In this document: positions 19,178 through 40,925 of the stretch, piece by piece | Layout of the letters: each line of letters begins with the position of its first letter | Numbering within the stretch: position 1 is the first letter of the stretch | Virus record (IMG/VR): IMGVR_UViG_3300033067_001948 | Location: 1 to 50,740 of that record | Origin: a virus | Taxonomy: Duplodnaviria; Caudoviricetes | Direction: 5' to 3' (one strand) | Length of the DNA stretch: 50,740 nucleotides | The notes under the pieces: generated by a model | Told to the model about the DNA's origin: nothing | Database searches by the model: none | Seen by the model: only the letters and a program-made list of their open reading frames with translations | Made by a program: the position numbers and the translations under genes

Positions 19178-19181
19178 CGCC

Positions 19182-20490: not shown

Positions 20491-20528
20491 GTTATGGCGA
20501 GCAATATTCGCTATGGAGATTTACCTAC

Positions 20529-20951
20529 ATGGCACTTTTGCTCGTAAGAACAATCGACAATACGCACGCTGATGAATCCCGGGATATCCGGGGAACCTGG
20601 AAAGCCGGGGATATCGTACAGGTGCTGCCCGATACCGCTTTCGACGGCGACACCCAGAAGAACCCGATCGCCGAGGGCTTCGCGCTGATCAAAGTCAATC
20701 GCGCAGAGGCGCTGCTACAGCAGTATGTTGGCCCTGCGAAGATCACGTTGAAGCGGGAAGAGGTCACTATGCGACGGCTGAATGGGCGTATTGTGGCCAC
20801 GCGACAATCAGTGGATGACGTCCAGCCCGTGGTACGGTCCCGCTATTCCATTAGTCTCGATGGGCTTCCAGCGAGCCGGTATGTCGAAATCACGGCAGCG
20901 CAACTGTTGGCGAGGTTAACCGACAAGTCGACGCTCGTGGATATCGAGTAA
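20529..20951 (+). CDS. hypothetical protein
   Basis: GGAG RBS, 140 aa. Confidence 0.65.
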   Translation: MALLLVRTIDNTHADESRDIRGTWKAGDIVQVLPDTAFDGDTQKNPIAEGFALIKVNRAEALLQQYVGPAKITLKREEVTMRRLNGRIVATRQSVDDVQPVVRSRYSISLDGLPASRYVEITAAQLLARLTDKSTLVDIE

Positions 20952-22667: not shown

Positions 22668-22686
22668 GCTCGGCAATGAGCAGGGC

Positions 22687-24702
22687 GTGCTGATCGTAAC
22701 GCTCCTCGCTGCCCTTGCCTTTGCTCAGAACACACGCGCGCCTGTCGGTGGACCTGGAAACACACAGCTTCTCCCTCTGAACACGATCGGCGGCTCTGTC
22801 ACAAACCGCGCGGTACGTGTCAATTCGCAGGGCCGCCTGGCCGTCGTCACCGGCACACTGACGGATTGCGTGCTCGTGAATGGATCGAGCGGGCCGTGCG
22901 GATCCGGCAGCGGCGACGTCCCCTCGACGCGAACCATCAGCACGACACTTCCGCTCACTGGCGGCGGAGATCTCAGCGCAAACCGTACAATCTCGATGCC
23001 GGCGGCCGCGACCGGCCAGAGCGGGTATCTCACCTCGACCGATTGGAACACCTTCAATAGCAAGGTAGGAACGGCTCGCACGATCTCCACTAGTGCGCCA
23101 TTGGGCGGCGGCGGCGATCTGTCGAGCGATCGCACCCTCACCTGCAGCACGTGCGAGGTGACCACAAACAAGAACGCAAGCAGCGGCTACGCTGGCCTCA
23201 GCGCGGGCAAGCTGACCGCCAGCGTGGGTCAGGAAGTCTGGAGCGTTGCAGACCTCACCGAGTACACCGGATCATCCGGAAGCGGCGCAACGGCCGTACG
23301 CTCAACGTTTACCAACCTAACGAACGGCGACGTTCTGACCTGGTCCGGCTCGAACTGGGTGAACCAAACCCCTACCGGCGTGTCTACGATTGCGGGACTG
23401 ACTGACACCCGAGTGACCAAAACGGACAATACGCACCTTGCGTATTCCGGCGGTTACGTCCGCTGTGGAGTCACTCCGGTGAGCACGGCCGCGATCGCGT
23501 CCATCACTCTGGCCAGTGGATCGGCCGGCACTGTCCATGTGGGCGTGAATTGCGCGGCATCTGGAGCCATCGTCATTGCGTCTGGCACGCTGAGTATTAC
23601 CGGAAGCGGCTTTACTCCTTCCGCGGACTCCGACCTCTCGAACTACCAGAACATCATTCCAATCGCATCCGTCACCGTAGCGACGAGCGCGTTCGGAACG
23701 CCAGTGAACTATAACTCGATGGTCTCCGGCGGCGGCGTCACTTGCTCAACCGGGCTCACGTGCGACATCGATGCTAACGGCCTGTGGCGCCTGGCTGTGG
23801 ATTCCACAATCGCGCTGCGTACGCTGTCGAACCTGTCGAGCGTTTCCATCAACACGGCGCTGATTCCCCAGACCGGCGTAGATCTCGGTGCGGCGGCAAC
23901 TGCCTTTCGCGACATCTATCTGTACGGGTCTGGCACGTTTGGCTCACACTCCATCAAACTGACCAGCGCACCGACCGGCAATCGCGTTGTCACACTTCCT
24001 AACTTCACGACGACACTTATCGGTACGAGCGGAAGCCTGACAACCAACAACATCGCGAGATTCAACGCAAATGGTGAAGTGATCGACGCCGGCGTCGCGA
24101 TCGGTAACGTTGTGCAGCGCACCAGCACGAACTTCACGGCCACCGAGATTCTGTTAGCCGAGACCAGCTCCGGAATAGGACACTCCGGAATTCTGGTGAG
24201 CGGAGACGACACCTCCGCATCGCGCACCGTTAGCTTCGGCGTCTCCGGAACTGATCCCGTCGTCACCGTCGGCGCGAGTTCGTTCGACATCTCCACAGGC
24301 ACCCTGAAACAGGGCGGAAACCCGGTCGAGACCAAGGCGGCGAACACACAGGTTAAGACCTTCATTATTCCCGGTACCGGCGTAAGCAACGTGCTGCAGG
24401 ATGCAGACGATCAGCAGTCCGTCTGGAACAACCAGCACGGCGGCGCGATCACGATCAGCTCTGTCACTTGCGAGTCGGACGCGGGCACGCCATCGATTCA
24501 ACTGCAGAAGGATGACGGCTCACCGACGAACATGCTCAGCGCGAGTCCTGGCTTTGGTTGCGCGACGACGCCGGCGACAACGACATCGTTCGTGAGCGGA
24601 GAGAACGTGCTGGCCGCGGGCGATCGCCTCGACTTCCTTTCGATCTCTGCAGGCGGATCCGCGCACTGGGTCTCCGTCACGTTCGTTTACACGAGGAACT
24701 AA
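22687..24702 (+). CDS. tail-fibre-like protein with signal peptide
   Basis: MLIVTLLAALAFA-Q leader; two GGGDLS(A/S)(N/D)RT fibre motifs; NGDVLTWSGSNWVN; GTG 10 nt after GGCAA. Confidence 0.75.
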   Translation: MLIVTLLAALAFAQNTRAPVGGPGNTQLLPLNTIGGSVTNRAVRVNSQGRLAVVTGTLTDCVLVNGSSGPCGSGSGDVPSTRTISTTLPLTGGGDLSANRTISMPAAATGQSGYLTSTDWNTFNSKVGTARTISTSAPLGGGGDLSSDRTLTCSTCEVTTNKNASSGYAGLSAGKLTASVGQEVWSVADLTEYTGSSGSGATAVRSTFTNLTNGDVLTWSGSNWVNQTPTGVSTIAGLTDTRVTKTDNTHLAYSGGYVRCGVTPVSTAAIASITLASGSAGTVHVGVNCAASGAIVIASGTLSITGSGFTPSADSDLSNYQNIIPIASVTVATSAFGTPVNYNSMVSGGGVTCSTGLTCDIDANGLWRLAVDSTIALRTLSNLSSVSINTALIPQTGVDLGAAATAFRDIYLYGSGTFGSHSIKLTSAPTGNRVVTLPNFTTTLIGTSGSLTTNNIARFNANGEVIDAGVAIGNVVQRTSTNFTATEILLAETSSGIGHSGILVSGDDTSASRTVSFGVSGTDPVVTVGASSFDISTGTLKQGGNPVETKAANTQVKTFIIPGTGVSNVLQDADDQQSVWNNQHGGAITISSVTCESDAGTPSIQLQKDDGSPTNMLSASPGFGCATTPATTTSFVSGENVLAAGDRLDFLSISAGGSAHWVSVTFVYTRN

Positions 24703-24703
24703 C

Positions 24704-25798
24704 ATGCGTTGGGCGATTCTACTGCTTCTCGCCATGCCGGCGAGCGGTGCCTGGACGAACTGCCGGCAGCTCACCCCGACCACACAGCCAGGCTCCTCAC
24801 TCACGGACTTCACCGCTCTGGTGAGTGACACCTATGCCTGGATGGCAGCCACAGGGAGCGGCGGAGATCTCCAGGACGCGCAAGGCGACGATTTTCGCTT
24901 CTACTCGAGCTCGGATTGTGCGACGGGCGCACTGAAGTACCGCCGGCTGAGCTGGAACAGCTCCACCGGCGCATTCTCGGCGTGGGTCAAGATTCCGACG
25001 TTCGCCAGTGGCACATCCATCTGGATCGGCACGGGTGACAGCGGTGTCACCACCGATGGATCGGACGCGGCGAACACTTGGCCGAGTTCGGTGAAGGTGG
25101 TTTATCAGATGGACGATAACGCCGCAAATACAACGGTTACGGACGATTTGGGTGCGACCAACCTCACCAACCAGGCGAACACCTCCGGAAAAACGACAAG
25201 CGGGCAAATCGGCTCAGCGCTCGTGTTTAACGACACCGGCACGCCAGACTATGCGACCGCGGCCGGCACGGCGATCAACAGCCTCACCACGAACTTCATG
25301 ATCGAAGGCTGGCTCTACCGAACGGGATCGTCCGCAAGCGGCGACTTCTGGCTTGCCAAGGGCCGCGGCGGTGCAAGCGGGTGGGCTCCGTTCACGCAAA
25401 GCGGAACACATCAGTTCGTGAAATTCGGCGTAGCGGCTTTCGATAGCGCCGTGTCCTCTTCCACAAACACCTGGGAGCACATCGTGTGGACGGTCGACGG
25501 AAGCAACGTCGCACGGCTTTACAAAAACGGCTCGCTGGTCTTTACGAGCGGGAACAATTCCGCGATCGGCGCTTCCACCAACGAATTCAATCTGGCGGTG
25601 GCACGCGACGGAACAGGCGCCGTCGACAACTCGACGCTCTGGAAGGGGCGGCTCGATTACATCGTCGTGCGAAACGCATTACCGGCCGTACCGGCGGATT
25701 GGATCGCGGCGGAGTATGCCAACCAGAGCAACCCTTCGGGCTACTGGTCTGTAGGTTCAGCCGGAACGACGAAACGACGGATCATTTTCACCCAATGA
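24704..25798 (+). CDS. DUF2341 + LamG/concanavalin-like protein with signal peptide
   Basis: MRWAILLLLAMPASG leader; GDDFRF...AWVKIP; WEHIVWT...LYKNG...GRLD...DWIAAEYANQ. Confidence 0.8.
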   Translation: MRWAILLLLAMPASGAWTNCRQLTPTTQPGSSLTDFTALVSDTYAWMAATGSGGDLQDAQGDDFRFYSSSDCATGALKYRRLSWNSSTGAFSAWVKIPTFASGTSIWIGTGDSGVTTDGSDAANTWPSSVKVVYQMDDNAANTTVTDDLGATNLTNQANTSGKTTSGQIGSALVFNDTGTPDYATAAGTAINSLTTNFMIEGWLYRTGSSASGDFWLAKGRGGASGWAPFTQSGTHQFVKFGVAAFDSAVSSSTNTWEHIVWTVDGSNVARLYKNGSLVFTSGNNSAIGASTNEFNLAVARDGTGAVDNSTLWKGRLDYIVVRNALPAVPADWIAAEYANQSNPSGYWSVGSAGTTKRRIIFTQ

Positions 25799-28590
25799 AA
25801 GCAGTATTCACTCTTTTACTCGTCGCAAATACGCTCGGGGCCGCCCTGCGCACCGTGTGCGCCTCCGGATGCGATCACCAGACGCTCTCGCAAGCGGTAT
25901 CGGCGCATTCGCCTGGCGACATCATCGAGATGGCATGCGGCGAAGACTTTCTGAACTCTTCGATCACCTGGCCGTGGAAGGACAACCCGCGCGGGCTAAT
26001 CACCACCGTCCGATCGAGCTGTTGGGAGAAGCTCCCGCCGCGGGGCGTGAGAGTGAACCCGACTCAGCATCGCAGCCTGATGCCTCACCTGTATCCGTCG
26101 AATTCGAGCGACGCGATCATTCGGATGGGCGGAAATCAGGCCGTCGTCACAAACGTAAACACAGCCACCAATACGATCACGCTCGATTCGTCCGCCGGCA
26201 TCACCAACGGGGCAGGAATCGCCTGCCGGACGGTCGGATCCATGCCCGGCTCAATGGTGGAGAACCGCGAATATATCATCTCCAGCGCCTCCGGAGCGAG
26301 CTTTGTTCCAACCGAGAACGGCTCTGCGGTCACACTAAACACCGCCGGCAGCGGAATCTATTGCACTCCGACGCGCGTCGCGAGCTACGTCAGATTTCTG
26401 GGGATCAACTTTGAACAGCGCGCCGGGACACCGTTTCTCTATAGCCTGCTTGAAATTGGGACGGGCTACGAAGCGGCCGTGGTGGGCACACCCCGCAACA
26501 TCCACTTCGACCACTGCATCTTCGACTCGCCGGTGAATGAGAGTGGGCCGCGGAATCACATCTTTCTGAACGGCCGATACGTCACGGTCGAGGATAGCTG
26601 GCTCGCCAACGCCAAGCAGAATTCGATTGAGTCTCACGCCATCGTGATGGTGCAGACTCCCGGGCCCGTGCTCATTCGCAACAACTATCTGAACGCCGCC
26701 AGTATCAACATTCTGACCGGCGGAGAAGATACCAAGATCCGCGGACAGATTCCGACGGACATCACGATCGTCAACAACCACTTCCAAAAGAGCGGCTACA
26801 TGCTGTGGATGCAGGGCACGGCGGCGCCAACCGGCTCCTGCCTGAATGGCCGCTACTACATCCGGAAGATCACACAGCCTAATGTGCTGTCCATCACGCA
26901 GACCGGAACTCCCGGCTCGACGGGCTACACGTACCAGGTTGTCGCGATCAATGGCGGAGCTGGATCACCAAAGACCAAGGGATACGACGCCTTCACCGGC
27001 ACCGGAAACGCTACGCTCAACAGCTCGAACTACAACGTCGTAACGTGGGCCGCGGTCACTGGAGCCAGTTCATACGACGTCTATCGCACATTCGGTGGAG
27101 CGAGTCAGGGAAAGATCGCCTCCGTTTCTTCCGGAACGCTCACCTACAACGACCAGGGAGCGGCCGGCGACGGAGTCTCGCCAAGCGATCCCACTTGTGC
27201 CGATGGTGGCTGCTACACCTGCACGGCAAGCGCATGGGCGCTTGATTCGTCAGCTCCCTACAGGTCCGAGACCTACAACGCCAAGGGCTTCTTTGAATCA
27301 AAGAAGTGTCTGCGTTGCTTGCTCGAAGGAAACTGGATGGACACCAGTTTCGCCGATATTGACCCCGGAAACACGGGTTACTGCTTCTTTCTCAGCTCCT
27401 ATCACGACGACACCAACAGGTACGTCACGTATCGAAACAACCACTGCGAAAAGATGTGGACCGGCATAGGTGTGGCCATCTCCTACGATGGCTATCCCCA
27501 TTCGAACTATCAGATTCAAATCGTGAACAACAATCTGCTCGATATGGGGATCAATCCCGACTACACATCGAATGACCCGGCAACTCCGGGGAACCTGTTT
27601 CACCGCAGATCGACGTACTTCGGCACGGCATTCGATGATGTGAGCGTCCGCAACAACACGATCAGGACAGCCGCCGGAATGACTTCAACGGGCGCTATCG
27701 TGTTCAGCAACTTTAGCGGCGGCGCCAACCTCAACTTCGATTTCCGGAACAACATCATTGACCAGGGCGGCGCCGGCATTCTATACGACACCACGGGAAC
27801 GGATGACTGCGCACCCGGCAGCAAGATGGGAGCGTTCATCGACACGCCGACCGGGCGGTTCCGAAACAACGTGCTGTACGGATCCGCCGGCATCTCGCCG
27901 AGCTGCGCCTTCACGAGTCTCGGAACACCCTCGACGGTCGATTTTGTTTCCGCTTCAGACAGCACCCTGCAGACGATCAGCCCGTACTCGCCGGGCTGCG
28001 CGTCCGGCTGCGCGTTTGTCGGTACCGACGGCAGAGCGCCAGGCGTCAACAAGGCACTGAACGACTGGCACACCTCCGGAGCGGTTGCGGGAACCCCGCG
28101 CTGGATGGCTGATTTTGAGGTGGAGGTGGGGAGCGCTAAGGCACTCTTGCGCTACACGGCGCCGACGACGGCGCCCTGTACGGTGGCGCTTTACACCAAC
28201 GCGGGAATGACCATTGAGCACGCCGATACCGACACGTCCGGCAAAAAGCTCGACTCGCGTTCCGGCAGCTATACGGACGGTCTCCGGCGCAATCACGTCC
28301 TCGGCCTCAACACGGCGCTCACACCCGGCGGCAGCACCCTATACGGAATGCTCACATGCGCCTCGCAGACGCGGCCGTTCGAGTTCGTGACGAAGGCCAC
28401 CGGCACCGGCCGCACCGTGCCGATCAGCTATGCGACGAGCCGCAATGGTCAGGTCTGCGACGATGTCGCGATGTCCACCAATTGCACCTCGTTCACGGGC
28501 ACGGCGAAACACAGCGTGGTGATGGGCTTCAACTCGGTGCGCTGGTATCAGGAAGAGGGCGGCCGGAAGCGGGCGCTGATCGAGCCGTAG
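25795..28590 (+). CDS. large pectin-lyase-like beta-helix protein (depolymerase/adhesin) with signal peptide
   Basis: MKAVFTLLLVANTLGA leader; TVCASGCDH...PGDIIE; GPVLIRNNYL, DITIVNNHF, FESKKCLRCLLEGN. Confidence 0.8.
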   Translation: MKAVFTLLLVANTLGAALRTVCASGCDHQTLSQAVSAHSPGDIIEMACGEDFLNSSITWPWKDNPRGLITTVRSSCWEKLPPRGVRVNPTQHRSLMPHLYPSNSSDAIIRMGGNQAVVTNVNTATNTITLDSSAGITNGAGIACRTVGSMPGSMVENREYIISSASGASFVPTENGSAVTLNTAGSGIYCTPTRVASYVRFLGINFEQRAGTPFLYSLLEIGTGYEAAVVGTPRNIHFDHCIFDSPVNESGPRNHIFLNGRYVTVEDSWLANAKQNSIESHAIVMVQTPGPVLIRNNYLNAASINILTGGEDTKIRGQIPTDITIVNNHFQKSGYMLWMQGTAAPTGSCLNGRYYIRKITQPNVLSITQTGTPGSTGYTYQVVAINGGAGSPKTKGYDAFTGTGNATLNSSNYNVVTWAAVTGASSYDVYRTFGGASQGKIASVSSGTLTYNDQGAAGDGVSPSDPTCADGGCYTCTASAWALDSSAPYRSETYNAKGFFESKKCLRCLLEGNWMDTSFADIDPGNTGYCFFLSSYHDDTNRYVTYRNNHCEKMWTGIGVAISYDGYPHSNYQIQIVNNNLLDMGINPDYTSNDPATPGNLFHRRSTYFGTAFDDVSVRNNTIRTAAGMTSTGAIVFSNFSGGANLNFDFRNNIIDQGGAGILYDTTGTDDCAPGSKMGAFIDTPTGRFRNNVLYGSAGISPSCAFTSLGTPSTVDFVSASDSTLQTISPYSPGCASGCAFVGTDGRAPGVNKALNDWHTSGAVAGTPRWMADFEVEVGSAKALLRYTAPTTAPCTVALYTNAGMTIEHADTDTSGKKLDSRSGSYTDGLRRNHVLGLNTALTPGGSTLYGMLTCASQTRPFEFVTKATGTGRTVPISYATSRNGQVCDDVAMSTNCTSFTGTAKHSVVMGFNSVRWYQEEGGRKRALIEP

Positions 28591-28610
28591 CCGGGCAATT
28601 GAACCGCAGA

Positions 28611-29405
28611 ATGAAGTTTTACACCAAGACTCTCGCAATTGCGCTATTCGCTTGCTCGCTGATGGCGCAGGTAACTTTCAATGGCATTCCGGACAACGCT
28701 CGACGGCCTTTCGCGCCGACCGAAGAGTTCCTCAAAAACGAGGTAAAGCAGACGCAGGATGCACTCAGCGTCCGGCTGATCTCTGAAAACGATTACGACA
28801 TGATCGTGCTGGCCAATGGCTACCAGTACGAGCGTGTTTTCAACTACGGACCCGCGGTTCCTTTCAGCTCCGATGGTCGCGTCAAGACATGGTGGAACGG
28901 CGGCCAGGCTTTTGAGGGCGTGTTCGTCGCGCGCAACCCTGATGGTTCGTGGGCGTGTGAGCTGAACCAGGAGACTATCCCGGGTATGCAGTGGGCGACC
29001 CGCGAGCTGTACGACTTTTACAGGCTGCGCAATCGTGATTTCCCGTGCGTCCCGAAGCTGGTAACTCGCATCATTGATGCGAATGAGGCGGGAAGGGCGC
29101 AGTTTGGGAACGGTCCGGCGGCCGATTTCCCACTGGCGAAGATCCTTCGCAATGATCCGACGGCGAACTTTCGCAGCACGTTTCCGCGGAACGTGGGCCT
29201 CCGGATCAACGCTCTCGGCGGGCTCGACTGGTTTCGCCTGGACGCTTACGATCGCGCCTATCCGGTCACCACAACGACAACGATCGGCTCACCTTCGGAG
29301 CGATCGCCAGGCGTGATCATGGCCACCCTTGGAATGCTTTTCAATAACCCGAACCTTTCCGCGGCCGAGAAGTTCGCGCAGATCAAAGCTCTGTTTGTTC
29401 CATAG
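28611..29405 (+). CDS. putative exported protein
   Basis: MKFYTKTLAIALFACSLMA-Q signal peptide. Confidence 0.75.
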   Translation: MKFYTKTLAIALFACSLMAQVTFNGIPDNARRPFAPTEEFLKNEVKQTQDALSVRLISENDYDMIVLANGYQYERVFNYGPAVPFSSDGRVKTWWNGGQAFEGVFVARNPDGSWACELNQETIPGMQWATRELYDFYRLRNRDFPCVPKLVTRIIDANEAGRAQFGNGPAADFPLAKILRNDPTANFRSTFPRNVGLRINALGGLDWFRLDAYDRAYPVTTTTTIGSPSERSPGVIMATLGMLFNNPNLSAAEKFAQIKALFVP

Positions 29406-29420
29406 GGCAACCTACCGGGT

Positions 29421-30278
29421 GTGACTTACGGCGAGATCCGTCTATTTCTCACTCAGTGGGCGCCCGGGACGCCACTGAACCTGATCAGCGGTTGGATACA
29501 GGACCGCTATAGCGAGATTCTCGGCCGGCTGATGTGGACCCGCCAGAAAGCACAGATCGTGCTGCAGGCGGCTGCGAGCTACGCAACGGGAACCGTGGCA
29601 GTGACTGCCGGCGGTACCGAACTTGTTGGCACCGGGACAACCTGGACCAGCGACATGAACGGCCGCCTGATTCGCATTAACGAGCAGGCGGCTTTCTACA
29701 CGTTCACGTTTGTGGATGCGACAAACGCGACGATCGACCGGGCGTATGAAGGCGAGACTGAATCGGGACTCAGCTACCGCATCGACCAGAACCTGATCTA
29801 TCTCCCTCCGGAGGCGCGCGCCGTCGAACAGGTGCGCCGTATGGATCCGCCCGGCGTCCTCACCAGGTGGGACACGCTCACGAGCGGCGAGGACATGCCC
29901 AACCGGGCGAGCTATGGCACTCCGCTGCACTGGCTGCAGCACATGGATAGTCAGACGGAGTATCCGGTTATCCAGCTGGAGTTACTCCCTATTCCGGAGC
30001 TGCTATCGAGCTACCCGATCACTTACTGGTACGAGGATGTTCCTCCGACGGCAACGGCGACGACGCTGCTGCCCTGGATGCAGCCAGGTGCGATCAAAGC
30101 GGGCGTGCAGGCCGACATCTCCGGCTGGCAGAAAGACTATACCGGTCAAGCGCTGTGGGAGAAGAAATTTGAGGATCGCGTGCTCCAGATGCAGGCGAAC
30201 GACCATCAGCGCAAGGGACAGACGCACATGCGCCTCTCTCCGTGGATGGTGCGCATGAGTAGGAGCTGTGACGACTAA
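29421..30278 (+). CDS. head-tail adaptor/tail ring protein 1 with inserted beta domain
   Basis: MTYGEIR helical start, YLPPE...V, GTPLHW, LELLPIP; insert GTVAVTAGGTELVGTGTTW. Confidence 0.7.
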   Translation: MTYGEIRLFLTQWAPGTPLNLISGWIQDRYSEILGRLMWTRQKAQIVLQAAASYATGTVAVTAGGTELVGTGTTWTSDMNGRLIRINEQAAFYTFTFVDATNATIDRAYEGETESGLSYRIDQNLIYLPPEARAVEQVRRMDPPGVLTRWDTLTSGEDMPNRASYGTPLHWLQHMDSQTEYPVIQLELLPIPELLSSYPITYWYEDVPPTATATTLLPWMQPGAIKAGVQADISGWQKDYTGQALWEKKFEDRVLQMQANDHQRKGQTHMRLSPWMVRMSRSCDD

Positions 30279-31015
30279 TGACGGCCGGAGATCTGAAGAC
30301 TCGACTGTTCAAGCGGCTCGGTGAGGATTCCTCCGCTCCGACCTATTACACGAACTCAGAAGTATTGAACGCGCTGAACGCGGCCGAACGGCTCTTCTGT
30401 CTGATCACGCTATGTCTCGAATCGACGGCCGTGCTCACGCTCAGCGCAGGCGTTGCCTGGTATCTTCCGCTCTCGACGCTTTCCAACTGGCTGCTTCCGC
30501 TCCGAATGCGGATCACGGGAGGAGCAAAGCTCGAGCCTGCCCGTCTCGAAGAGCTGGACGCGTTGAGTCTGACGTGGGAAGAGACGGCCGGAACACCTTC
30601 GCGCTACTGCTCGCTCGGCTGGAATCTGCTCGCTTTTTATAAGCAGCCGGCATCGGGCGGCACAACGATCGACGTGACCTATGCGCGCGGGCCTGCAGCG
30701 ATGACGACGGACGCATCGACGCCGGAGATTCCCGAAGAGTATCAGCCGTGCCTGGTCGAATGCGCGATTCCATTTCTTCGCATCAAAGAGGGTGGCCAGG
30801 AGTTTACAAAGAGCCTCTACCACTTCGATTCCTTTCTGAAGGACGCGGCCAAGATGGCGCTGTTTGTGCGCGCGCGCAACCTCTCGCAGCGCTATGACAA
30901 GCTACCCTTCGAACTCGAAAGTTTCGACCGGTCGAAGCTGCTCAAGCTGGCAATGAAGCAGCAGAAGCCTGCGGCGCTCGACATTCCCCAGGCAGCGGAG
31001 ACCAGTGGCGGATAA
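30278..31015 (+). CDS. head-tail adaptor/tail ring protein 2
   Basis: MTAGDLKTR...LNALNAAER, GTPSRY, PEIPEEYQPCLV. Confidence 0.75.
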   Translation: MTAGDLKTRLFKRLGEDSSAPTYYTNSEVLNALNAAERLFCLITLCLESTAVLTLSAGVAWYLPLSTLSNWLLPLRMRITGGAKLEPARLEELDALSLTWEETAGTPSRYCSLGWNLLAFYKQPASGGTTIDVTYARGPAAMTTDASTPEIPEEYQPCLVECAIPFLRIKEGGQEFTKSLYHFDSFLKDAAKMALFVRARNLSQRYDKLPFELESFDRSKLLKLAMKQQKPAALDIPQAAETSGG

Positions 31016-32294: not shown

Positions 32295-32297
32295 CCC

Positions 32298-32948
32298 GTG
32301 AGCCTGTTACTGCTCTTCCGCACACCCGCGGCAGGGACGGGAATTGATGTTTCCGACGTTCTCAAGAGCCTGCTTCCCGCGCTGCAGGCGGAGAGCTTCA
32401 ATCAACTCGACTTCTGGACCGAAACCGAGCTGTATCAGTTTGCGGATGAAGCGGCGAAGCGCCTGGCTCGCGAGGTGGGCGGGTTCATTGTGCGCAGCTC
32501 CTTTGCGGTTGTCGCGAACACGGCCGAATACAGCGTGCCAGCCCGGCACATGGCGACGATCCGGGTCAGCCTGGCGGGCGAGGCGCTCTCGGTGTCCAAT
32601 TTTGAGGAGATCGACGCGCTTGATGAGGACTGGCCGACGACGGCGGCCGACTATTGCGATCGCGTCTTCCATCCCACGCTCGAAACGCTGCGGCTCTACC
32701 CGATACCCAACACAGAGGTGAGCGGTAGCGTTGCGATCGTCTTTGCGCGGTATCCGGCGGAGATCACCGCGGCCGCGGCGATCGTATCGGCTCCTCTGTG
32801 CCTGCGGGACTACTTCACGTGGAGTGTCCTGGCGGCCGCCAGGGAGCGCGAGAGCGAGGCGGCGATGCCAGAGGTAGCGCAGTGGCTCGGCGGCGTGGTG
32901 GGCCTCTATACGCAAATGATGAAGGGTTATTGGGGCGGCACGCAGTGA
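32298..32948 (+). CDS. head-tail adaptor/tail ring protein 3
   Basis: FWTETELYQFADEAAKRL, EYSVP, LRLYPIP. Confidence 0.7.
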   Translation: MSLLLLFRTPAAGTGIDVSDVLKSLLPALQAESFNQLDFWTETELYQFADEAAKRLAREVGGFIVRSSFAVVANTAEYSVPARHMATIRVSLAGEALSVSNFEEIDALDEDWPTTAADYCDRVFHPTLETLRLYPIPNTEVSGSVAIVFARYPAEITAAAAIVSAPLCLRDYFTWSVLAAARERESEAAMPEVAQWLGGVVGLYTQMMKGYWGGTQ

Positions 32949-33211
32949 CGCGGATACTGCTCATCCTGGCAGCCTGGACCCTGCTCGAAGCTACCCCCGC
33001 ACCTCCCAATTTGGAGCGGCTCAATTCCTTCGCCGAGCAGTACAACCTCTATGTGCAGCGGCTCAAGGAAGGGAAGCAGGACCTCGAACAGTGGGGACGT
33101 GTGCTGAGGGCCTGGCAGCGAGTGGCGAAGGGGCAATCTGCAGAGTGTGCCGTTCAAGAAAGACACCCAGAGAATCCTAGCCGGATCGTTGAATCTTCTC
33201 CCACCAGGTGA
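32945..33211 (+). CDS. small exported protein
   Basis: MTRILLILAAWTLLEA leader; GTGA overlap. Confidence 0.55.
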   Translation: MTRILLILAAWTLLEATPAPPNLERLNSFAEQYNLYVQRLKEGKQDLEQWGRVLRAWQRVAKGQSAECAVQERHPENPSRIVESSPTR

Positions 33212-35348
33212 CCTGATACCGGAAGGAGACTCGCTCCAGCTGCAGAACTGGCGCGTCGACCAGGCGGGGCAACTGCGATCACGCCGCGGGATGTCGGCAG
33301 ACTCGCCGGCGATTGCCTACAGGCCGATCCGAAAGCTTTTTCGCGCGGCGAATGACCGCTACGCCTATGCGGGCGACAGCGTCCTGCACGGAGCAAATCT
33401 TTCCACTGTGGTATTCAACGGCGCGGGCGGCGGCCTGGCGGGCTTTGTGTCGATGAATCAGCGCACCTGGTTCATGAACGCGTTCAAGCAGCAGTGGATG
33501 GCGGGCGTTACGACCGGACAGATGGGCATTTCGGCGCCGTCGTCCGCTCCATCGGTGGGCATCCCTTACGGCGCCGGACCTGGCTCCGGGGTGCTGAACT
33601 CCGGCGACTCGGGTTTTCAATACTACGTCACCTACTCGAATGTTTACGGCGACGAGAGCGCACCGTCTCCGATTTCGGATCCGATCATCGCCATCAATCA
33701 GCCGGTTTTGGTAGGGCTTCCTGCTTCCCCGGACTCCCAGGTGATCTATTGGAACATCTATCGAATAGGCGCCGGCGTGAACAGCCCGCTGCGGGTCGCA
33801 CAGGTGTATGGCGCCAGCAGTTTTTACGACAACGTCTCCGTTTCGCAGCAGCAGACCGATTTCATCGAGATGCCGCTGGACAACGACATGCCACCGGCCG
33901 CCTATGGCCTGGCTGGTCCGTTTCTCGGCCGCCTCATCGCCTTTCGGTCCATCGTGCAGCCCGGCCGTTACTGGTGGAGTAAGCCCGGGCAGCCGCACGC
34001 CTGGCCGGGTGCGCTCGATGATTTTGAGGGGAACTGGGAAGACGCCGGCGACGTGCGTGAGGCGATTCTGGCCGCCACACACGCAGGCCGCATGCTGCGG
34101 CTCTACAAAGAGAAAGGGATCTGGCGCGTCGATGGTGATCCCGACACAAACGATGTCGAGCGCACCAATGCCGATGTCGGACTCGTCGGGCCTGACGCGA
34201 TTGCTTCCCGCGGCGCGGTGGACTACTTCCTTGGTCCGGAGGGTATCTACGCATTCAACGGCGATCGCACGGAGTTAATCAGCCATCGCATTGCACCGAT
34301 CTTCAAAGGCGAGTACACCCGTGTCGGCGATGTTTACGTGCCACCGATCAACATTGTGGCTGCCTCACTCTCGGTGATGGCGCAGCGGTTTGGCCGATTG
34401 TATTTCAGCTATCCGAGCATCACATCCGAACCGGACACCACGCTGGTGTGCGACCTCGATAGCGGCCGCTGGTACACACACAAGCTCAGCGACAGCCTGC
34501 CGGCGACCGGATTCGCCGGATTGTACGACGAGGGAACCACGAGCGTCTTGCTTGGCTCCGTGAGCGGCGCGAGCACCTCGACGCTCTATCGGCTTGAGGA
34601 AGGGAATCGCGACGGTACCGCGGCGATCCCGCTCATCTGGCAGAGCCGCCAGGCCGATCAGGGCTTGCCCGATAACGAGAAGGTGTATCAGGACCTGGTC
34701 ATCGACTACCAGACGGCCGATGCGAACGAATCCGCCAGCTCGCTCACCGTCAAGGTGATCTATAAGAACCAGTTTGTGGACAACGTCGTTGAACCCGTAG
34801 GGACGATCCAGTCCGGCGATCGCGTCCGCAAGACGTTCTCACTTGGCGGCTACCCGGGCCTCATGGCCTACAACCTGGCTGTGCGCATTGAAGGCGATGT
34901 GACCTCCACCGTGCGGATCTATGAAGCGACGCTGCACTACTATGTCGAGCCGCGGCGATCGCGCCACTGGGACTCCGGATGGCTCGATCTCGGCACGCGC
35001 AATTTCAAGGAACTGCTCGCCCTCGAATTCGACATTGAGTCTGATGATGCGGTGGACTTGGGCATCCATAACGACGATGTTTTCTTCAACCAGGCAGCCG
35101 CGAATACCATCACCGCTTCCACGATTCGCCGGCGCGTCTACCTGCAGAACGAAACGCAGCCGCCCACTCTCTACAATGCAAGTCAGAAAGGCATCAACGG
35201 CCGTAAGTTTCGCTTTACGCTCGCCGTGAACGAGGGGAAGTACTTCAAGCTGTATGGCGCCCGGGTGAAGGTGCGGCCTCTCGGAACGCTGATCGACGGT
35301 GACACGAAGGAGTTCTGGGTTCCGACTCCCCTATCGCCGGGCAATTAG
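33147..35348 (+). CDS. tail nozzle/stabilisation protein (P22 gp10/T7 gp12-like)
   Basis: LQNWRVDQAGQLRSRRG start, YWWSKPGQPHAW, VGLVGPDAI beta-propeller-type motifs. Confidence 0.75.
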   Translation: MPFKKDTQRILAGSLNLLPPGDLIPEGDSLQLQNWRVDQAGQLRSRRGMSADSPAIAYRPIRKLFRAANDRYAYAGDSVLHGANLSTVVFNGAGGGLAGFVSMNQRTWFMNAFKQQWMAGVTTGQMGISAPSSAPSVGIPYGAGPGSGVLNSGDSGFQYYVTYSNVYGDESAPSPISDPIIAINQPVLVGLPASPDSQVIYWNIYRIGAGVNSPLRVAQVYGASSFYDNVSVSQQQTDFIEMPLDNDMPPAAYGLAGPFLGRLIAFRSIVQPGRYWWSKPGQPHAWPGALDDFEGNWEDAGDVREAILAATHAGRMLRLYKEKGIWRVDGDPDTNDVERTNADVGLVGPDAIASRGAVDYFLGPEGIYAFNGDRTELISHRIAPIFKGEYTRVGDVYVPPINIVAASLSVMAQRFGRLYFSYPSITSEPDTTLVCDLDSGRWYTHKLSDSLPATGFAGLYDEGTTSVLLGSVSGASTSTLYRLEEGNRDGTAAIPLIWQSRQADQGLPDNEKVYQDLVIDYQTADANESASSLTVKVIYKNQFVDNVVEPVGTIQSGDRVRKTFSLGGYPGLMAYNLAVRIEGDVTSTVRIYEATLHYYVEPRRSRHWDSGWLDLGTRNFKELLALEFDIESDDAVDLGIHNDDVFFNQAAANTITASTIRRRVYLQNETQPPTLYNASQKGINGRKFRFTLAVNEGKYFKLYGARVKVRPLGTLIDGDTKEFWVPTPLSPGN

Positions 35349-35354
35349 CCCGAT

Positions 35355-35687
35355 GTGCAGGGAGTAACTCAGTTCAAAGACGTGACGCTCGAATACGCGT
35401 CCACTGTTCCGTTCAGCGTGAACGTGTTGACGGATATGCCCGGCGATAGCCTTGGCATTCGGAAGTCGCTCACGTTTCCGGCGACCGGAGGAACCACGCA
35501 GCGCAACAAGATCACCCTGCCTCTCGATGGCGTCGAGGGGAAGCTGATCAAGTTCGCCGGCACGCTGCCTTCTGGCGGTGCCGTAGTGCTGTTTGCCGGC
35601 TCGTATCGAGCGCGCATCGTCGGCACGTATCTCGATGGCAGCCGCGGCGACTTTTGGGAAGTGGGCCCGCTCAGCCCGGGAGCGTAG
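35355..35687 (+). CDS. small paralogue of the nozzle C-terminal domain
   Basis: VGTYLDGSRGDFWEVGPLSPGA vs LGTLIDGDTKEFWVPTPLSPGN. Confidence 0.7.
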   Translation: MQGVTQFKDVTLEYASTVPFSVNVLTDMPGDSLGIRKSLTFPATGGTTQRNKITLPLDGVEGKLIKFAGTLPSGGAVVLFAGSYRARIVGTYLDGSRGDFWEVGPLSPGA

Positions 35688-35690
35688 GCC

Positions 35691-36302
35691 GTGGGCTTTG
35701 AGACGCTCTGGCTCTTCCGTTATCTCGAACTCGATTGCGACACGGACGCACCCGTCAACCTGAACGTTCTCACTGACAAGCCTGGCGACGTCATTTACGT
35801 GAAGCGCAGCCAGTCTTTCAACACAGAGGACACGACGACGGGGCGACGCACGGTGCGGATCCGCTTTCCTGGCTTCGCTAAGGGAAGGCTCCTGCAGGTG
35901 CGGATGGAACCGCTCGGTGTGATGCGCCTATACGGTGCGCGAGTCTATGCCAAGAAGCTCGGGGTGCGCGCACAGTGGGCCTGGTACGCGCTGCCGGTAG
36001 TTCCGACACCCGATCTATGGAGCACGTTCGGCATTCCCATTCCGGGCGTGCAGGACCTCTGGAGCGATGCGCCGATCCCGATCGAGGGAACACCGGACTT
36101 GTACGCAAGCGCTCCGATTCCGATCCCCGGAGTTTCGGAGGCCTGGTCGGAGGCTCATCTTCCTATCGCGCCCACTCCGGAGGAATACGCCTCAGCGCGG
36201 CTGCCGATCGCTCCGACGGCTGAGGAGTGGGGCACTATCCGGCTCCCGATCGCAGAGACACCCGTCGAGGGTATCTGGGTTGATCTGCCGGTGGAGGACT
36301 GA
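35691..36302 (+). CDS. nozzle-domain paralogue with 14-aa Pro-rich repeats
   Basis: LYGARVY motif shared with the nozzle; seven [LI]P[IV]xx[TV]xxx[WY]-type units. Confidence 0.7.
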   Translation: MGFETLWLFRYLELDCDTDAPVNLNVLTDKPGDVIYVKRSQSFNTEDTTTGRRTVRIRFPGFAKGRLLQVRMEPLGVMRLYGARVYAKKLGVRAQWAWYALPVVPTPDLWSTFGIPIPGVQDLWSDAPIPIEGTPDLYASAPIPIPGVSEAWSEAHLPIAPTPEEYASARLPIAPTAEEWGTIRLPIAETPVEGIWVDLPVED

Positions 36303-36778
36303 TGCGAAGAGGCAGTGGCATCAATTTCGAGATCCCGCCCAACACTCCACCGCAAGAGATGGAACGGGTACTGAACGCGATCTTTCGTAAGATCGCTGCG
36401 CAGTTTTCGCAGCTAAGCACCTCGACATCGAGCGGAGGAAGTAGCGGAAGCGGCGGCAGTAGCGGCGGTGGCAGCAGTGGGGGTGGAAGCGGCGGGAGCG
36501 GCGGCGGGACGGCCGAAGGATTTATCTCCAGGCGCGTGCTCATCACCGATGATCCGCACGGCATCGGCGTTCCTGTTCCCTCTACACCTACTCTCCTGGC
36601 GCTTCTGCTCGAGCAGGATGATCCGGGCGGACACTTCATCTACTGGGGCGCGGAGTTCGTTGACGCTCCGGATCCGGCCGGACTACCGAGAAGCCAACGC
36701 GCGAAGGTTCTCATTCTTTTTTGTTCGAGCGAGGACGGGACGGCCTGGCTACAGGCAGCCCCCATGCAAGTCACATGA
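36302..36778 (+). CDS. tail protein with Gly/Ser linker
   Basis: N-terminal helix, SSGGSSGSGGSSGGG linker, QDDPGGHFIYWG. Confidence 0.65.
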   Translation: MRRGSGINFEIPPNTPPQEMERVLNAIFRKIAAQFSQLSTSTSSGGSSGSGGSSGGGSSGGGSGGSGGGTAEGFISRRVLITDDPHGIGVPVPSTPTLLALLLEQDDPGGHFIYWGAEFVDAPDPAGLPRSQRAKVLILFCSSEDGTAWLQAAPMQVT

Positions 36779-39700
36779 TTCGGATTCTTCTCTGGCTACT
36801 ATTGGCGAACCAGGCGGCGGCGCAAAGCATCACACGCGTGCAGACGCTCGAAGTGTCCGCACCTTCGGCGACGGAAGGCGGGCGGATCCGCTTCCGCGAT
36901 GCGGCGAACCCGTCGCACTCGCTCACGATCCTTGCGCCGGCGTCCTTTCCTTCGCAGACCTGGCGGCTGCCGGCCACGCAGGCGGCCGGGCCACTCTGTA
37001 ACGATGGTCTCGGTAATTTGACCTGGTCCGGATGCGGCGGAGGCGGCGGCGGTACCGGCGACTTCTCGACCAACACGACGACATCGGCCGCCGGCGAAAT
37101 GGTTGTGTACGCGGACACCACGGGGAAGCTCGGCGGGCGATCGCTGTTTATTCTCGCTGGACCTGCGACGACGGCTAAAACGTACACCTTTCCAAATCAG
37201 AATTCCACGATGGCCGCGATCAACAACGTGCAGACCTGGTCTGCGGCGCAAACGATCAACGGCGGCTTGCTGATCGTGGACAACTTCGGAAACGCGCAGC
37301 ACAACCATACCAACGGCGTGAACGGTGGACAGATCACCGACGCGGCGCTGTCGGCCGCGGTGACGGTCCCGAAGGGTGGTACAGGACAGACGTCTCTTTC
37401 GGCACATGGCGTGCTCATCGGCAACGGCACGAGCGCTGTGACTGTCAGCTCGGCCGGAACAAGCGGCTATTGCTTCGTCAGCAACGGCGCCTCGGCTGAT
37501 CCCACGTTTCAGATCTGCCCGACAGGCGGCGGCAACGTGGCGGTCTCCGGATCCACAACGAACGGAAACATACCGTACTGGTCAAGCACGGGCGGAACTC
37601 TTCACGCGACAGGCCTGGCTTACGGCCAGGCGGCGTCAGGCCTTTCACTCGTTCAACGCGACTCCGGAGGAGCCATCGTCATTGCAGGACTGACCGCAAC
37701 GACGGGAACGTTCACCAACATCGTCGCGATCACGCCGAGCACTGCAACAACTGCACTGGCCATTCGGCGAGGGACGCTCGGACAGACAGATCCGATCGCC
37801 ACGTTCAGCGATCAGAGCGGAAACGTACTGAGCAGCATCGACAAGGATGGGAAGTTTCCGGCGACCATGCTGTTGGGAACCGTCCCCATCGCCAATCTAG
37901 GAAGTTCAGGAACCCCCTCGAGCTCTACATTTCTGCGTGGAGATAATGTCTGGGCAACGCCTGCAGGCGCGGGCACCGTGACCAACACAGGAACGCTCAC
38001 GAGCGGACGCATCATCAAAGGCAACGGCGGCACGGATATCACCGTAGGTGATCTCACTGGCGTCGTGACCACGTCGGGCGGCATGACAACATCTTTCGCT
38101 TCCTCATCCGGAAGCGGCGCAGTGATTCTGCAAACCAATGCTACGCTCGCCTCGACTACCGTACTCAACGGCAAATTCAACTCGCTTTACGGCTCCACCA
38201 GTGCTGCACCAGTCATCGAATTTCTGAACGCGGTGGGCGATGTGAACTACCTCCAGGTGCAGTCGAACATCTCAGGACAGTCCGTCTACTTGACCGCTGC
38301 GGGTTCGGATGCCAACGTGAATCTCACGCTTGGGCCAAAGGGAAGCGGCAAGCTAATCCTAGGAGCTGTCGGGGCAGTCTCCATCAACGGCGGATCTGTC
38401 GGCCAGTTTCTCCGCACGGACGGCTTCGGCGGCCTGAGTTGGCAGACAGTCTCCGGTACCGGAACGGTGACAACCATCGAAACGACGCTCCCTATCGTCG
38501 GCGGTCCCATCAACACGTCCGGTTTTATCTCGTGTCCCACGTGTGTCACATCAGCCGCGGCTCTCACAGCGAACCGCATCATGCTCGGCAACGGCTCACA
38601 GGTTGCCACCACAATGACCAGTCTCGGCACGACAACACAGGTGCTGCACGGCAACGCGAGTGGCGTACCTAGTTGGGGTCCAGTTAGCTTGTCCAGCGAT
38701 GTTTCCGGCACCCTGCCAGTGGGTAACGGCGGTATCGGAACCATCACGCTGACAGCCCACGGTGTGCTCATCGGTAACGGCACGGGCGCGATCGCGGCCA
38801 CCACGGCCGGACTCGCCGGCCAGTGCCTGGTCTCAAATGGCGCGTCGGCAGACCCAACGTTTCAATCCTGTCCTGGATCCGGAGGGACGGGCGATGTTTC
38901 GGCCACTGGCGCTACCACCTCCGGACGCATCCCGTTTTGGAGCGTGACGAACAAGACCCTCGACGCGGTTGGATATGCGGTTTCGAGCACTACGAACACT
39001 GCATCGGCGATCATCATTCGCGATCCGCTGTCCGCCGCGGTGTTCTTTGACAAGGGCGGACAGACGATCAACGTGCGATCGTACGGCGCGGTGGGCGACT
39101 GCTCAACCAACGACGCCACGGCCATTCAGAACGCGATCAATGCAGCGCAGACTTCTTCGTCTGGAGTCACCGAAGTTTTGCTTGACGGAAGCTGCTTCGC
39201 GATCTCGAACGGACTCACGATCGGAAACGGTGTGGCGGACACTGGATCGTCGGCAGCAACTGAGTCCACCAGGCGGCAAATCATCATGCGCGGGCAAGGC
39301 GGCCGCGGCGTCGACTCGGCTCGAACCGGATCAACCCGTATCAAGTGGATCGGCGGATCCACTGGAACGGAACTCACCATCCAGGGTCCGATGAACCCCG
39401 GTCCGGTGCTGGAAAACATCACGTTTGACGGCAACGGCGGAAGCAACGTCACGGGCATCAACCAGATCAACGCTTCCCATTCGTACTGGAACAATATTTC
39501 CATCATCAACGCCCGTCTCGGTGTGAACATGACCGCGAACGCGCGCGGAAACGTGCCGTATGGAAACTGCGACAACTCGTACTACAACCTCACCATCAGC
39601 ACGACCGTTTCAGGCGGATCCGGAATCAACCTCGACGGCCTGGATGTGGGCACACCGACCGACTTAGATGATCCTAGTCACGGTGGTTCGTACTCGAACA

Positions 39701-40443
39701 TCGACGGGCATGACTCTTGCTCGAACTTCTATTTTTCGCCGTACATCTGGCACGACGGTTATTCGAGCACGGCCTATGCTGTCCGCTTGGCTTACGCCGA
39801 CTCGAACACGTTCTACAGCCCGAACTTCTACGGTGGGCCATCGGACGGCAGCGGCCTGAGTAAGGGCGTGTTTTTCGATAACGCGGCACTGTCCGGTCCA
39901 CACAACTACTTCCCAACCGCAAACGTGTTTCACCGACCGGTGAGTCACCAGGGGTGGAGCGGCACGACGGGAACCGGCGCGAACAGTATCACGGACAAGC
40001 AGCTCGGTGACTGCTATCGCAATTGTGATCCGACCACGTCGCTAACAAGCGGCACGCTGCCACAAATCACCGAGACCGGCGGCTCGATCAAAAACTATCT
40101 CGGCATCAATCTGCTCGGCACACTGACCACGAAGAGCGGCGGATCGTCCTTCACGGCACTCAAGCATGTCGATGCCTCGAACACCGAGATTTTCTCGATC
40201 AGGCGCGGCACTGCCTACATGGAGATCTACAGCTTTGATGACGTCTCTTTCATCAACAGCGGAGCGGTACGCGGGAAGTTCAAGATCTATCACGGCACGT
40301 CGCAACCATTCGCCTGCAGCGGAAGCACCTTTGAAGGCGGCCTCTGGATCGACACCACACGGTCAGGGACCGGAGACATTGTTAAGGTCTGCGCTGCCAA
40401 TAATGCCGGCACGCTCGCCTGGCGGACGATCAGCACGTTTTAG
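36775..40443 (+). CDS. tail fibre/tailspike with pectate-lyase-3-like domain and signal peptide
   Basis: MIRILLWLLLANQAAA-Q leader; fibre motifs (GGTGQTSL..HGVLIGNGT, TFLRGD); NVRSYGAVGDCSTNDATAIQNAINAA. Confidence 0.85.
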   Translation: MIRILLWLLLANQAAAQSITRVQTLEVSAPSATEGGRIRFRDAANPSHSLTILAPASFPSQTWRLPATQAAGPLCNDGLGNLTWSGCGGGGGGTGDFSTNTTTSAAGEMVVYADTTGKLGGRSLFILAGPATTAKTYTFPNQNSTMAAINNVQTWSAAQTINGGLLIVDNFGNAQHNHTNGVNGGQITDAALSAAVTVPKGGTGQTSLSAHGVLIGNGTSAVTVSSAGTSGYCFVSNGASADPTFQICPTGGGNVAVSGSTTNGNIPYWSSTGGTLHATGLAYGQAASGLSLVQRDSGGAIVIAGLTATTGTFTNIVAITPSTATTALAIRRGTLGQTDPIATFSDQSGNVLSSIDKDGKFPATMLLGTVPIANLGSSGTPSSSTFLRGDNVWATPAGAGTVTNTGTLTSGRIIKGNGGTDITVGDLTGVVTTSGGMTTSFASSSGSGAVILQTNATLASTTVLNGKFNSLYGSTSAAPVIEFLNAVGDVNYLQVQSNISGQSVYLTAAGSDANVNLTLGPKGSGKLILGAVGAVSINGGSVGQFLRTDGFGGLSWQTVSGTGTVTTIETTLPIVGGPINTSGFISCPTCVTSAAALTANRIMLGNGSQVATTMTSLGTTTQVLHGNASGVPSWGPVSLSSDVSGTLPVGNGGIGTITLTAHGVLIGNGTGAIAATTAGLAGQCLVSNGASADPTFQSCPGSGGTGDVSATGATTSGRIPFWSVTNKTLDAVGYAVSSTTNTASAIIIRDPLSAAVFFDKGGQTINVRSYGAVGDCSTNDATAIQNAINAAQTSSSGVTEVLLDGSCFAISNGLTIGNGVADTGSSAATESTRRQIIMRGQGGRGVDSARTGSTRIKWIGGSTGTELTIQGPMNPGPVLENITFDGNGGSNVTGINQINASHSYWNNISIINARLGVNMTANARGNVPYGNCDNSYYNLTISTTVSGGSGINLDGLDVGTPTDLDDPSHGGSYSNIDGHDSCSNFYFSPYIWHDGYSSTAYAVRLAYADSNTFYSPNFYGGPSDGSGLSKGVFFDNAALSGPHNYFPTANVFHRPVSHQGWSGTTGTGANSITDKQLGDCYRNCDPTTSLTSGTLPQITETGGSIKNYLGINLLGTLTTKSGGSSFTALKHVDASNTEIFSIRRGTAYMEIYSFDDVSFINSGAVRGKFKIYHGTSQPFACSGSTFEGGLWIDTTRSGTGDIVKVCAANNAGTLAWRTISTF

Positions 40444-40493
40444 CTGGCAATAAAGAAATCGCATTGACCAATCTGCCCGAAAGGAAAAACAGA

Positions 40494-40925
40494 ATGCGAA
40501 TTCTCCAAATCGCTGCCCTTACCGCGCTCTTTGCGCTTGCCCGCGTCTCCGCACAGGAAGCCACGCCTCCGGCCGAATCCACTCCCGCTCCCGCGGCGGC
40601 CGCCAAACCGAAGGACACCCCGAAACCTCCCAAGCCCATCGACAAGGCGACGGCTCACGAGCTGAGCCAGATGCAGACCGAACTCTACCGCATCGAGGCG
40701 GAGTATCGCTCCCTCAACTCGCAACTGCTGGAACGCCAGGACTCGACCTACAAGCGCCTCCAGGAAACGATGGAGACCCGGAAGGGCGAGTTCGATAAGG
40801 CTGTGACCGCTTACCGGACCAAGCTGACCGAAGTGAAGAAAAAGAGCGGGGCGGCCGACGCCTGCGATATCGATCTGAAGCAAGAGTGGAACTGTCCGAA
40901 GGACGCAAAACCGCCGGCGAAGTAG
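40494..40925 (+). CDS. exported coiled-coil protein
   Basis: MRILQIAALTALFALARVSA-Q, Pro linker, coiled coil, C-terminal Cys pair; AAGGA RBS. Confidence 0.75.
   Translation: MRILQIAALTALFALARVSAQEATPPAESTPAPAAAAKPKDTPKPPKPIDKATAHELSQMQTELYRIEAEYRSLNSQLLERQDSTYKRLQETMETRKGEFDKAVTAYRTKLTEVKKKSGAADACDIDLKQEWNCPKDAKPPAK

Follow-up and report, generated by a model that had tools for sequence, protein, structure and literature searches.

Predicted export leaders on appendage proteins of a short-tailed phage suggest that its virion may be assembled in two compartments

The virus record IMGVR_UViG_3300033067_001948 (the whole record, of 50,740 bases, here called the window) encodes seven late proteins that begin with predicted Sec-type leaders, among them fibre-like and tailspike-like proteins of the tail module (positions 22,687 to 40,925). 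The virion core is probably built in the cytoplasm, with the leader-bearing appendages exported, folded and disulfide-bonded in the periplasm and docked at lysis. The evidence also leans slightly towards a wider proposal, that in a widespread group of tailed phages leaderless anchors capture Sec-exported, disulfide-bonded fibres or tailspikes, folded by co-exported chaperones, at lysis, and that the tag can be gained or lost gene by gene.

The window has a podophage layout, with a terminase, a major capsid protein, SU10-type adaptors, a nozzle-type protein, a GNAT protein and large genes at the position of ejection proteins. Podovirus-type markers were matched in Pfam and PHROGs (phrog_2, PF25209, PF24175, phrog_511), and no sheath, tube or tape-measure protein was matched in the window by the same databases. 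By gene content it is thus assigned to the short-tailed phages (podovirus-type Caudoviricetes). No exact terminal repeat was found in it, and the genome may thus be incomplete. Alignment of the nozzle protein gave 64 related loci (36 viral, 4 genomic and 24 metagenomic), and a capsid query added four more. All four genomic nozzle matches are metagenome-assembled genomes (MAGs) of Acidobacteriota, one of them on a 7.9-Mb contig, and the host is therefore likely to be a member of the Acidobacteria. A scan of viral contigs with the protein encoded at 36775 (genes are named by their first base) gave no match, searches of GenBank phages found no match to 36775 or 22687, a single weak nozzle match and no close cultured relative, and sequence searches of the PDB with 36775 and 22687 were blank.

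Leaders were called with a heuristic of our own for n-, h- and c-regions, not a trained predictor such as SignalP or Phobius, and on starts set by a rule that ignored leaders (the first start near the preceding stop, from our own gene caller). A score of at least 3.3 was reached by exactly seven of the 61 plus-strand open reading frames (ORFs) called in the window: 22687, 24704, 25795, 28611, 32945, 36775 and 40494. These are the seven starts at which the original prediction had placed hydrophobic leaders, and all are N-termini at those coordinates. Since only 69 of 8,213 windows taken from inside fibre-like proteins score positive, the chance of seven leaders among about 33 late genes is P ~1e-8. 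An uncharged hydrophobic core (8–16 residues) and small residues at −3 and −1 were found by the heuristic in all seven, and Lys or Arg precedes the core in six; 22687 has no basic residue, so the small-residue cleavage site that had been predicted stands throughout and the basic n-region in all but this protein. Cores of this length appear short for a membrane anchor or transmembrane helix. Read by eye, the seven N-termini have neither a lipobox Cys at +1 nor a twin-arginine motif, and the sole Cys within a leader (Cys15 of 28611) lies four residues upstream of the A-Q site. In six of the seven genes, the first 70 codons hold no internal in-frame start preceded by a Shine-Dalgarno-like word; the exception is 32945 (88 aa), with such a start at codon 60. 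Contigs from run X1 (probably the source sample) span all seven N-termini with no indel listed. Sec export of the seven proteins and their cleavage by signal peptidase I (SPase I) are predicted, with strong support.

The leader of 22687 is weak, with a GTG start and 13 residues. An out-of-frame ATG lies 11 nt upstream of this GTG and opens a 5-codon ORF overlapping it (22676-22693, plus strand), which could reflect translational coupling or a frameshifted leader start. A scan of all starts in the window gave ten further positives in shadow frames or at internal starts, which were set aside.

Selectivity was examined in a family set of 969 proteins, collapsed to 853 non-redundant sequences, in which proteins of at least 250 aa with at least 28% Gly+Thr+Ser were taken as fibre-like; four loci (L030, L033, L036 and L064) were excluded as weak matches. 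None of the 237 proteins in ten core families scored as leader-bearing, compared with 39 of the 85 fibre-like proteins. Anchors (0/13) and homologues of the side appendage 31005 (0/20) were also negative, and the six positives among 81 adaptors are due to a short hydrophobic extension whose presence goes with that of the 31005-like gene. The leaderless state of the virion core, as originally proposed, is thus borne out across the family, but selectivity within the window is looser: six fibre-like genes (18905, 19403, 19852, 20952, 31005 and 36302) are all leaderless, and beyond the tail module there are two further ORFs that have strong Sec-type leaders and match no family (8593-9222, plus strand; 45838-45491, minus strand).

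Conservation of leaders in homologues had been suggested as a check, and leaders were found to recur across the family, in at least 25 other loci. A leader-bearing protein of at least 200 aa occurs in 26 of 57 long-nozzle records (two calls were dropped by hand), and in 10 of the 16 records that span capsid to GNAT; among the other six, L023 does have leaders, below the heuristic cut-offs. In L085, the relative closest by capsid, the capsid gene is followed by a run of four genes that all carry leaders. In a wider search, 48 of 150 homologues of the N-terminal part of 36775 scored positive, query included, and the five homologues of its beta-helix region all begin with a leader-like segment (three by heuristic, two by eye). 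On a nozzle tree (FastTree, 31 rows, after removal of 25 partial negatives and L030) the trait is scattered, with 5 changes against a shuffled mean of 5.7, and does not reveal whether leaders were gained or lost.

Several of the alignments listed pair the mature N-terminus of one leader-bearing protein with the opening residues of a leaderless homologue (L011/L012 with L018; L058 with L015; P0071/P0098 with P0183; P0163/P0175 with P0159). For L011/L012 and L018, both sides match tailspike or pre-neck appendage PHROGs. The leader thus appears to be an add-on in front of an otherwise shared N-terminus. Leader sequences diverge freely yet retain their n/h/c structure, and they resemble those of Acidobacteriota hosts, where 31 of 167 MAG ORFs scored positive (up to six starts tried per ORF). 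A small residue followed by Gln is found in 41 of 67 phage leaders and 15 of 31 host leaders (p 0.28), and in 53 of 330 core proteins; glutaminyl cyclase is present in two of the four MAGs. Phage leaders are shorter (median 19, against 23 in the host; p 0.006), several having only 13–16 aa. By comparison, then, the export that had been proposed is well supported by host-like leaders, by recurrence in the family and by the prefixing of leaders to N-termini that are leaderless in homologues.

The five Cys motifs that had been quoted are all present, in 22687 (Cys61/71, Cys153/156) and 36775 (Cys233/248, Cys587/590, Cys684/699). The mature proteins contain 10 (22687), 2 (24704), 23 (25795), 2 (28611), 1 (32945), 16 (36775) and 2 (40494) cysteines. 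Core proteins of the window are mostly Cys-poor (0–5 Cys), and enrichment tracks the leader. The same holds in relatives, where the median Cys content per 100 aa is 1.67 with a leader and 0.53 without in the loci set (p 3e-4), and 1.04 and 0.29 among wider homologues (47 versus 92 proteins; p 2e-9). The fibre repeat that had been quoted offers a closer view of pairing: at its two Cys positions, 17 copies have both, none has a single Cys and 168 have neither (185 copies from 92 proteins, which are not independent). Among leader-bearing proteins, 8 of 31 have the repeat pair, compared with 4 of 61 of the rest (p 0.018); of these last four, two are fragments and two have a hydrophobic segment at the N-terminus. 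Even Cys counts are found in 34 of 45 leader-bearing proteins of the wider set and 30 of 70 others. DsbA-like proteins (PF13462) are encoded in all four Acidobacteriota MAGs. The strict pairing and the enrichment lend moderate, indirect support to disulfide bonding of the leader-bearing proteins.

The late genes form one tightly packed operon, with intergenic gaps of −65 to 50 nt and no excess of promoter-like sites (2, compared with 4.4 in shuffled sequence). From 22687 onwards they are as follows:

22687..24702, plus strand: fibre-like protein, 671 aa, with a weak 13-aa leader from GTG and 10 Cys
24704..25798, plus strand: DUF2341 and LamG lectin-like tip protein, 364 aa, with a leader, 2 Cys and a basic C-terminal tail
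25795..28590, plus strand: spike-like protein, 931 aa, rich in Gly/Thr/Ser, with a leader and 23 Cys
28611..29405, plus strand: 264-aa protein with a leader and 2 mature Cys, not fibre-like
29421..30278, plus strand: leaderless core tail protein in an adaptor slot (0/37 non-redundant family members score as leader-bearing)
30278..31015, plus strand: leaderless SU10-type adaptor (PF24175, E 1e-19)
31005..32294, plus strand: leaderless fibre-like side appendage, 1 Cys (0/20 family members score as leader-bearing)
32298..32948, plus strand: SU10-type adaptor whose N-terminus carries a short hydrophobic extension (PF24175, E 7e-13)
32945..33211, plus strand: 88-aa helical protein with a leader and 1 Cys, overlapping the nozzle start by 65 nt
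33147..35348, plus strand: leaderless protein of tail nozzle type, so named from its position and weak matches (0/50 with a leader)
35355-35687 and 35691-36302: two small leaderless genes after the nozzle
36302..36778, plus strand: leaderless fibre anchor stub, 158 aa, with an N-terminal helix, a Gly/Ser linker and a small C-terminal beta-domain
36775..40443, plus strand: distal fibre, 1222 aa, with a leader, Cys-paired repeats, a C-terminal tailspike-type beta-helix and 16 Cys
40494..40925, plus strand: coiled-coil protein, 143 aa, with a leader and a C-terminal Cys pair

The label of tail fibre or tailspike originally given to the whole set suits four of its members (22687, 24704, 25795 and 36775), the remaining three (28611, 32945 and 40494) not being fibre-like. 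The 36775 protein matches PF12708 at E 3e-4, below the cut-off. An AF2 model of its C-terminal 468 aa is a beta-helix (pLDDT 59.6); its best Foldseek matches, with 7chu at E 3e-7 and 2vbm (Sf6 tailspike) at E 1e-5 and TMq 0.42, include the tailspike structures of Geobacillus virus E2 (ORF18) and Sf6. A right-handed parallel beta-helix of tailspike type is accordingly predicted for 36775 from its model. Position after the nozzle is a stronger argument than fold for a virion part. The 36775 protein itself lacks the anchor motif of the family, which is carried by a separate gene, 36302, and 36302 has the same slot and N-terminal motif as anchors that are fused to long fibres in relatives. After the nozzle block, some relatives have such a fused anchor (L011, L012, L016 and L021), and others have a short anchor with a distal protein after it, leaderless in L002, L006, L022, L035 and L040 and leader-bearing, as in the window, in L020, L026, L029, L032 and L062. 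The type of C-terminal beta-domain in 36302 is shared with the anchors of L026, L029 and L062, and all four precede a leader-bearing fibre; the mature N-terminal module of 36775 is common to the L026 fibre. Modelled as a single chain, the 36302 domain was poor (pLDDT 56), with no Foldseek match at E 0.001. With VIA-align, phage tailspike and baseplate domains came at the top (best Z 4.6; CBA120 TSP4 residues 76-180, Z 4.1, rmsd 3.5, 74 aligned), a likeness that is a lead only, since the scores are below the level typical of chance.

The third gene of this group, 40494, lies in a position where relatives also carry a small coiled-coil protein. Leaders are present on these proteins after the leader-bearing fibres of the window, L004, L026 and L062, and absent after the leaderless fibres of L016 and L021. 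The leader-bearing forms have a Cys pair, although alignment identity is only 14–21% apart from P0199, a 40494 homologue that retains both leader and Cys pair. Similarity of 40494 to phrog_8746 (tail fibre assembly protein) is weak (E 0.03), no named family was found in the ESM Atlas, and a hidden Markov model of the chaperone-like coiled-coil proteins gave no new members. A co-exported fibre chaperone is a candidate role for 40494, with weak to moderate support. The main tail fibre looks split into a leaderless anchor (36302), a leader-bearing tailspike-fold protein (36775) and a leader-bearing coiled-coil protein (40494), with the stub, at moderate confidence, the predicted docking site of 36775.

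In the proposed sequence of assembly, the capsid, adaptors, nozzle and short anchor 36302, which have no leaders, would assemble in the cytoplasm. The 36775 protein, the 22687-24704-25795 set and the three small helpers would cross the inner membrane through the host Sec translocon and have their leaders removed by SPase I, after which they would fold in the periplasm, with cysteine pairing there as well. Docking of the exported parts on finished particles would follow once lysis breaches the inner membrane. Docking of 36775 on 36302 and its timing at lysis are suggested, at moderate confidence, by the gene slot and the split anchor. Late addition has a parallel in P22, where tailspikes join finished heads late and spontaneously.

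A number of observations weigh against this two-compartment scheme. The heuristic behind the leader calls errs visibly in both directions, with false positives (6 of 81 adaptors) as well as false negatives. Among the wider homologues, the P-series come without genomic context and some may be cellular. Cys counts are odd in 25795 and 32945, the repeat lacks cysteines in 23 of the 31 leader-bearing proteins that carry it, and the excess of even counts is weak in the loci set (23/36 versus 16/40; p 0.13 against chance). Neither DsbB (PF02600) nor VKOR (PF07884), the usual oxidase partners of DsbA, was found in any of the four Acidobacteriota MAGs, none of which is rated high quality. Disulfides need not imply export, because the phage Milano virion contains a network of disulfides within its core parts, as described in the available text of PMC10491603. 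The homology behind the groupings by anchor domain and chaperone is weak (E 0.02 to 0.7), and some of the seeds were chosen by us (two of the four anchors). Secreted polysaccharide enzymes (AlgE epimerases and lyases) and PfbA match the 36775 beta-helix about as well as tailspikes do. The leaderless 20952 and 31005 proteins could supply adsorption without exported parts, so that the need for adsorption alone does not settle attachment. Finally, Pfam and PHROGs identified no endolysin, holin or spanin in the window. Leader-bearing relatives encode endolysin-type proteins (GH19 in L087), and M15, Tlde1 or GH19 proteins are carried by relatives. Within the window, a 63-aa hydrophobic ORF lies at 2782-2973, and coiled coils flank a hydrophobic segment at 6860-8275.

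One alternative is export without incorporation into the virion. The proteins would then work, inside or at the surface of the infected cell or lysogen, as depolymerases, lectins or adhesins that stay periplasmic or are released, for instance stripping or masking receptors or opening the capsule at lysis. The enzyme matches of 36775 fit such roles, as do the three proteins that are not fibre-like and the two leader-bearing ORFs outside the tail module, and exported fibre folds serve Bdellovibrio as cell adhesins (available text of PMC10769870). This is nonetheless judged unlikely: 36775 fills the slot of leaderless or anchor-fused fibres in relatives, and 36302 would otherwise be a 158-aa stub; the N-termini that follow the leaders are those with which leaderless homologues begin; and neither a membrane anchor nor a separate promoter is evident.

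An improbable variant has the leaders cleaved late, the proteins being staged at the inner membrane by signal-anchor or SAR-like segments until particles collect them at lysis. Unusually short leaders (13–16 aa) and the lack of a basic n-region in 22687 would suit it, but the uncharged cores are short for a transmembrane helix and the frequency of small-residue/Gln cleavage motifs matches that in host leaders. It is decidedly improbable that the hydrophobic N-termini are uncleaved docking peptides linking fibre segments in the cytoplasm, with disulfides formed by air oxidation after lysis. The adaptor 32298 offers a model for such peptides within the family, its extension being present in 20 of 23 cases with a 31005-like gene upstream (by regular expression; 23 of 23 by eye) and in none of 20 without, and the Milano disulfides show that core parts can be bonded. 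However, this extension consists of about five hydrophobic residues without a basic n-region or cleavage site, unlike the seven leaders, which diverge in sequence but keep their n/h/c structure and also occur on the non-fibre helpers. For 32298 itself, an uncleaved docking peptide for the 31005 product, an optional side appendage, is the likely interpretation. An artefact of wrong starts or of chance hydrophobic stretches in low-complexity fibre genes is scarcely credible even with the GTG of 22687 beside an out-of-frame ATG and starts from our own caller, given the low internal background, starts that abut upstream stops, recurrence in at least 25 other loci and the absence of listed indels in the X1 contigs.

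Other features of the operon concern individual genes. The C-terminal end of 22687 is beta-rich and knob-like, and its first Cys-pair module recurs in leader-bearing proteins of L010, L020 and L023; the protein had no Pfam, PHROG or PDB match of note. The domains of 24704 match PF13385 (E 4e-9) and PF10102 (E 2e-4), and its homologues include leader-bearing (L039, L058) and leaderless (L015) forms. A beta-helix character of 25795 was seen by eye only, with no Pfam or PHROG match. Short basic-then-hydrophobic C-terminal tails are found on 24704 (KRRIIFTQ), 25795 (RKRALIEP), the L058 LamG protein and others, and are possibly C-terminal docking peptides. No family was found for 28611 in Pfam, PHROGs or the ESM Atlas. 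Small homologues of 32945 occupy the same slot in L004, L005, L007 and L045. The nozzle 33147 matches phrog_511 and phrog_3287, with profile matches to 9nwi_Y, 8jov_A and 7eeq_1. Upstream, after the capsid gene, a leaderless cassette (18905-22667, plus strand) contains phrog_12296, phrog_644 and a Gp80-type fibre gene (PF23140), and its gene 20952 carries a long Ala/Gly/Ser repeat stalk. A short tyrosine-recombinase gene (3625-4284, plus strand; 219 aa, phrog_216) has the catalytic domain only. Between the head genes of L087 (6890-7204) is an ORF that resembles a GroES co-chaperonin.

If the two-compartment scheme is true, receptor-binding proteins would gain oxidative folding and other envelope modifications, the end of lysis would become an assembly step, and fibres might be kept from cytoplasmic defence sensors. 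Annotation pipelines would misfile such genes as secreted host-type cargo, and cytoplasmic expression of the proteins may fail. The question is directly testable because the family has matched pairs with and without a leader (L012 and L018; L058 and L015).

To our knowledge, tailed-phage morphogenesis is taken to be wholly cytoplasmic, and an export route for fibres, as predicted here, would depart from this view. A literature search found no exported tailed-phage fibres in titles or the starts of abstracts, and supplementary SignalP columns could hold an unremarked precedent; the available passages of PMC3426561, PMC13274417, PMC5723332 and PMC3556154 concern methods, lysis proteins or unspecified proteins. 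The window is similar to the SU10-adaptor podophages in its SU10-type adaptors and Gp80-type fibre gene, and 36775 resembles the tailspikes of Sf6 and Geobacillus virus E2 (ORF18) in its predicted right-handed beta-helix. Podophage tailspikes (Sf6, E2 ORF18, the CBA120 TSPs) attach by their own N-terminus, whereas here the anchor is separate and leaderless and the leader is on the spike. The P22 tailspike has no signal peptide, according to the available part of bioRxiv 10.64898/2026.09.13.751334. Agrobacterium phage Milano, a soil phage, also has Cys-rich structural proteins, but its disulfides, in the available text of PMC10491603, are in the neck, collar and capsid, whereas here Cys enrichment follows the leader; the words 'periplasm', 'cytoplasm' and 'oxidi' are absent from the main text of that paper as available.

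The nearest precedents are the coat proteins of filamentous phages and the MAT fibres of Bdellovibrio bacteriovorus. In the available text of PMC4823517, pIII and pVIII of filamentous (Ff) phages are targeted to the inner membrane and their displayed domains fold in the periplasm; these too are phage structural proteins. Ff virions are extruded from membrane-inserted subunits, unlike the window's leaderless tailed capsid with leaders on distal appendages that have no membrane anchor. The MAT proteins, as described in the available text of PMC10769870, are phage-fibre-like trimers with signal peptides and disulphides, and give a precedent for the feasibility of fibre-like proteins carrying both leaders and disulphides. 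By that description they are cellular adhesins in which a beta-rich domain, about 130 aa long, is conserved after the leader, 13 of 21 ending in an S74 domain, whereas the genes of the window lie in a phage late operon and have no S74 match in Pfam or PHROGs.

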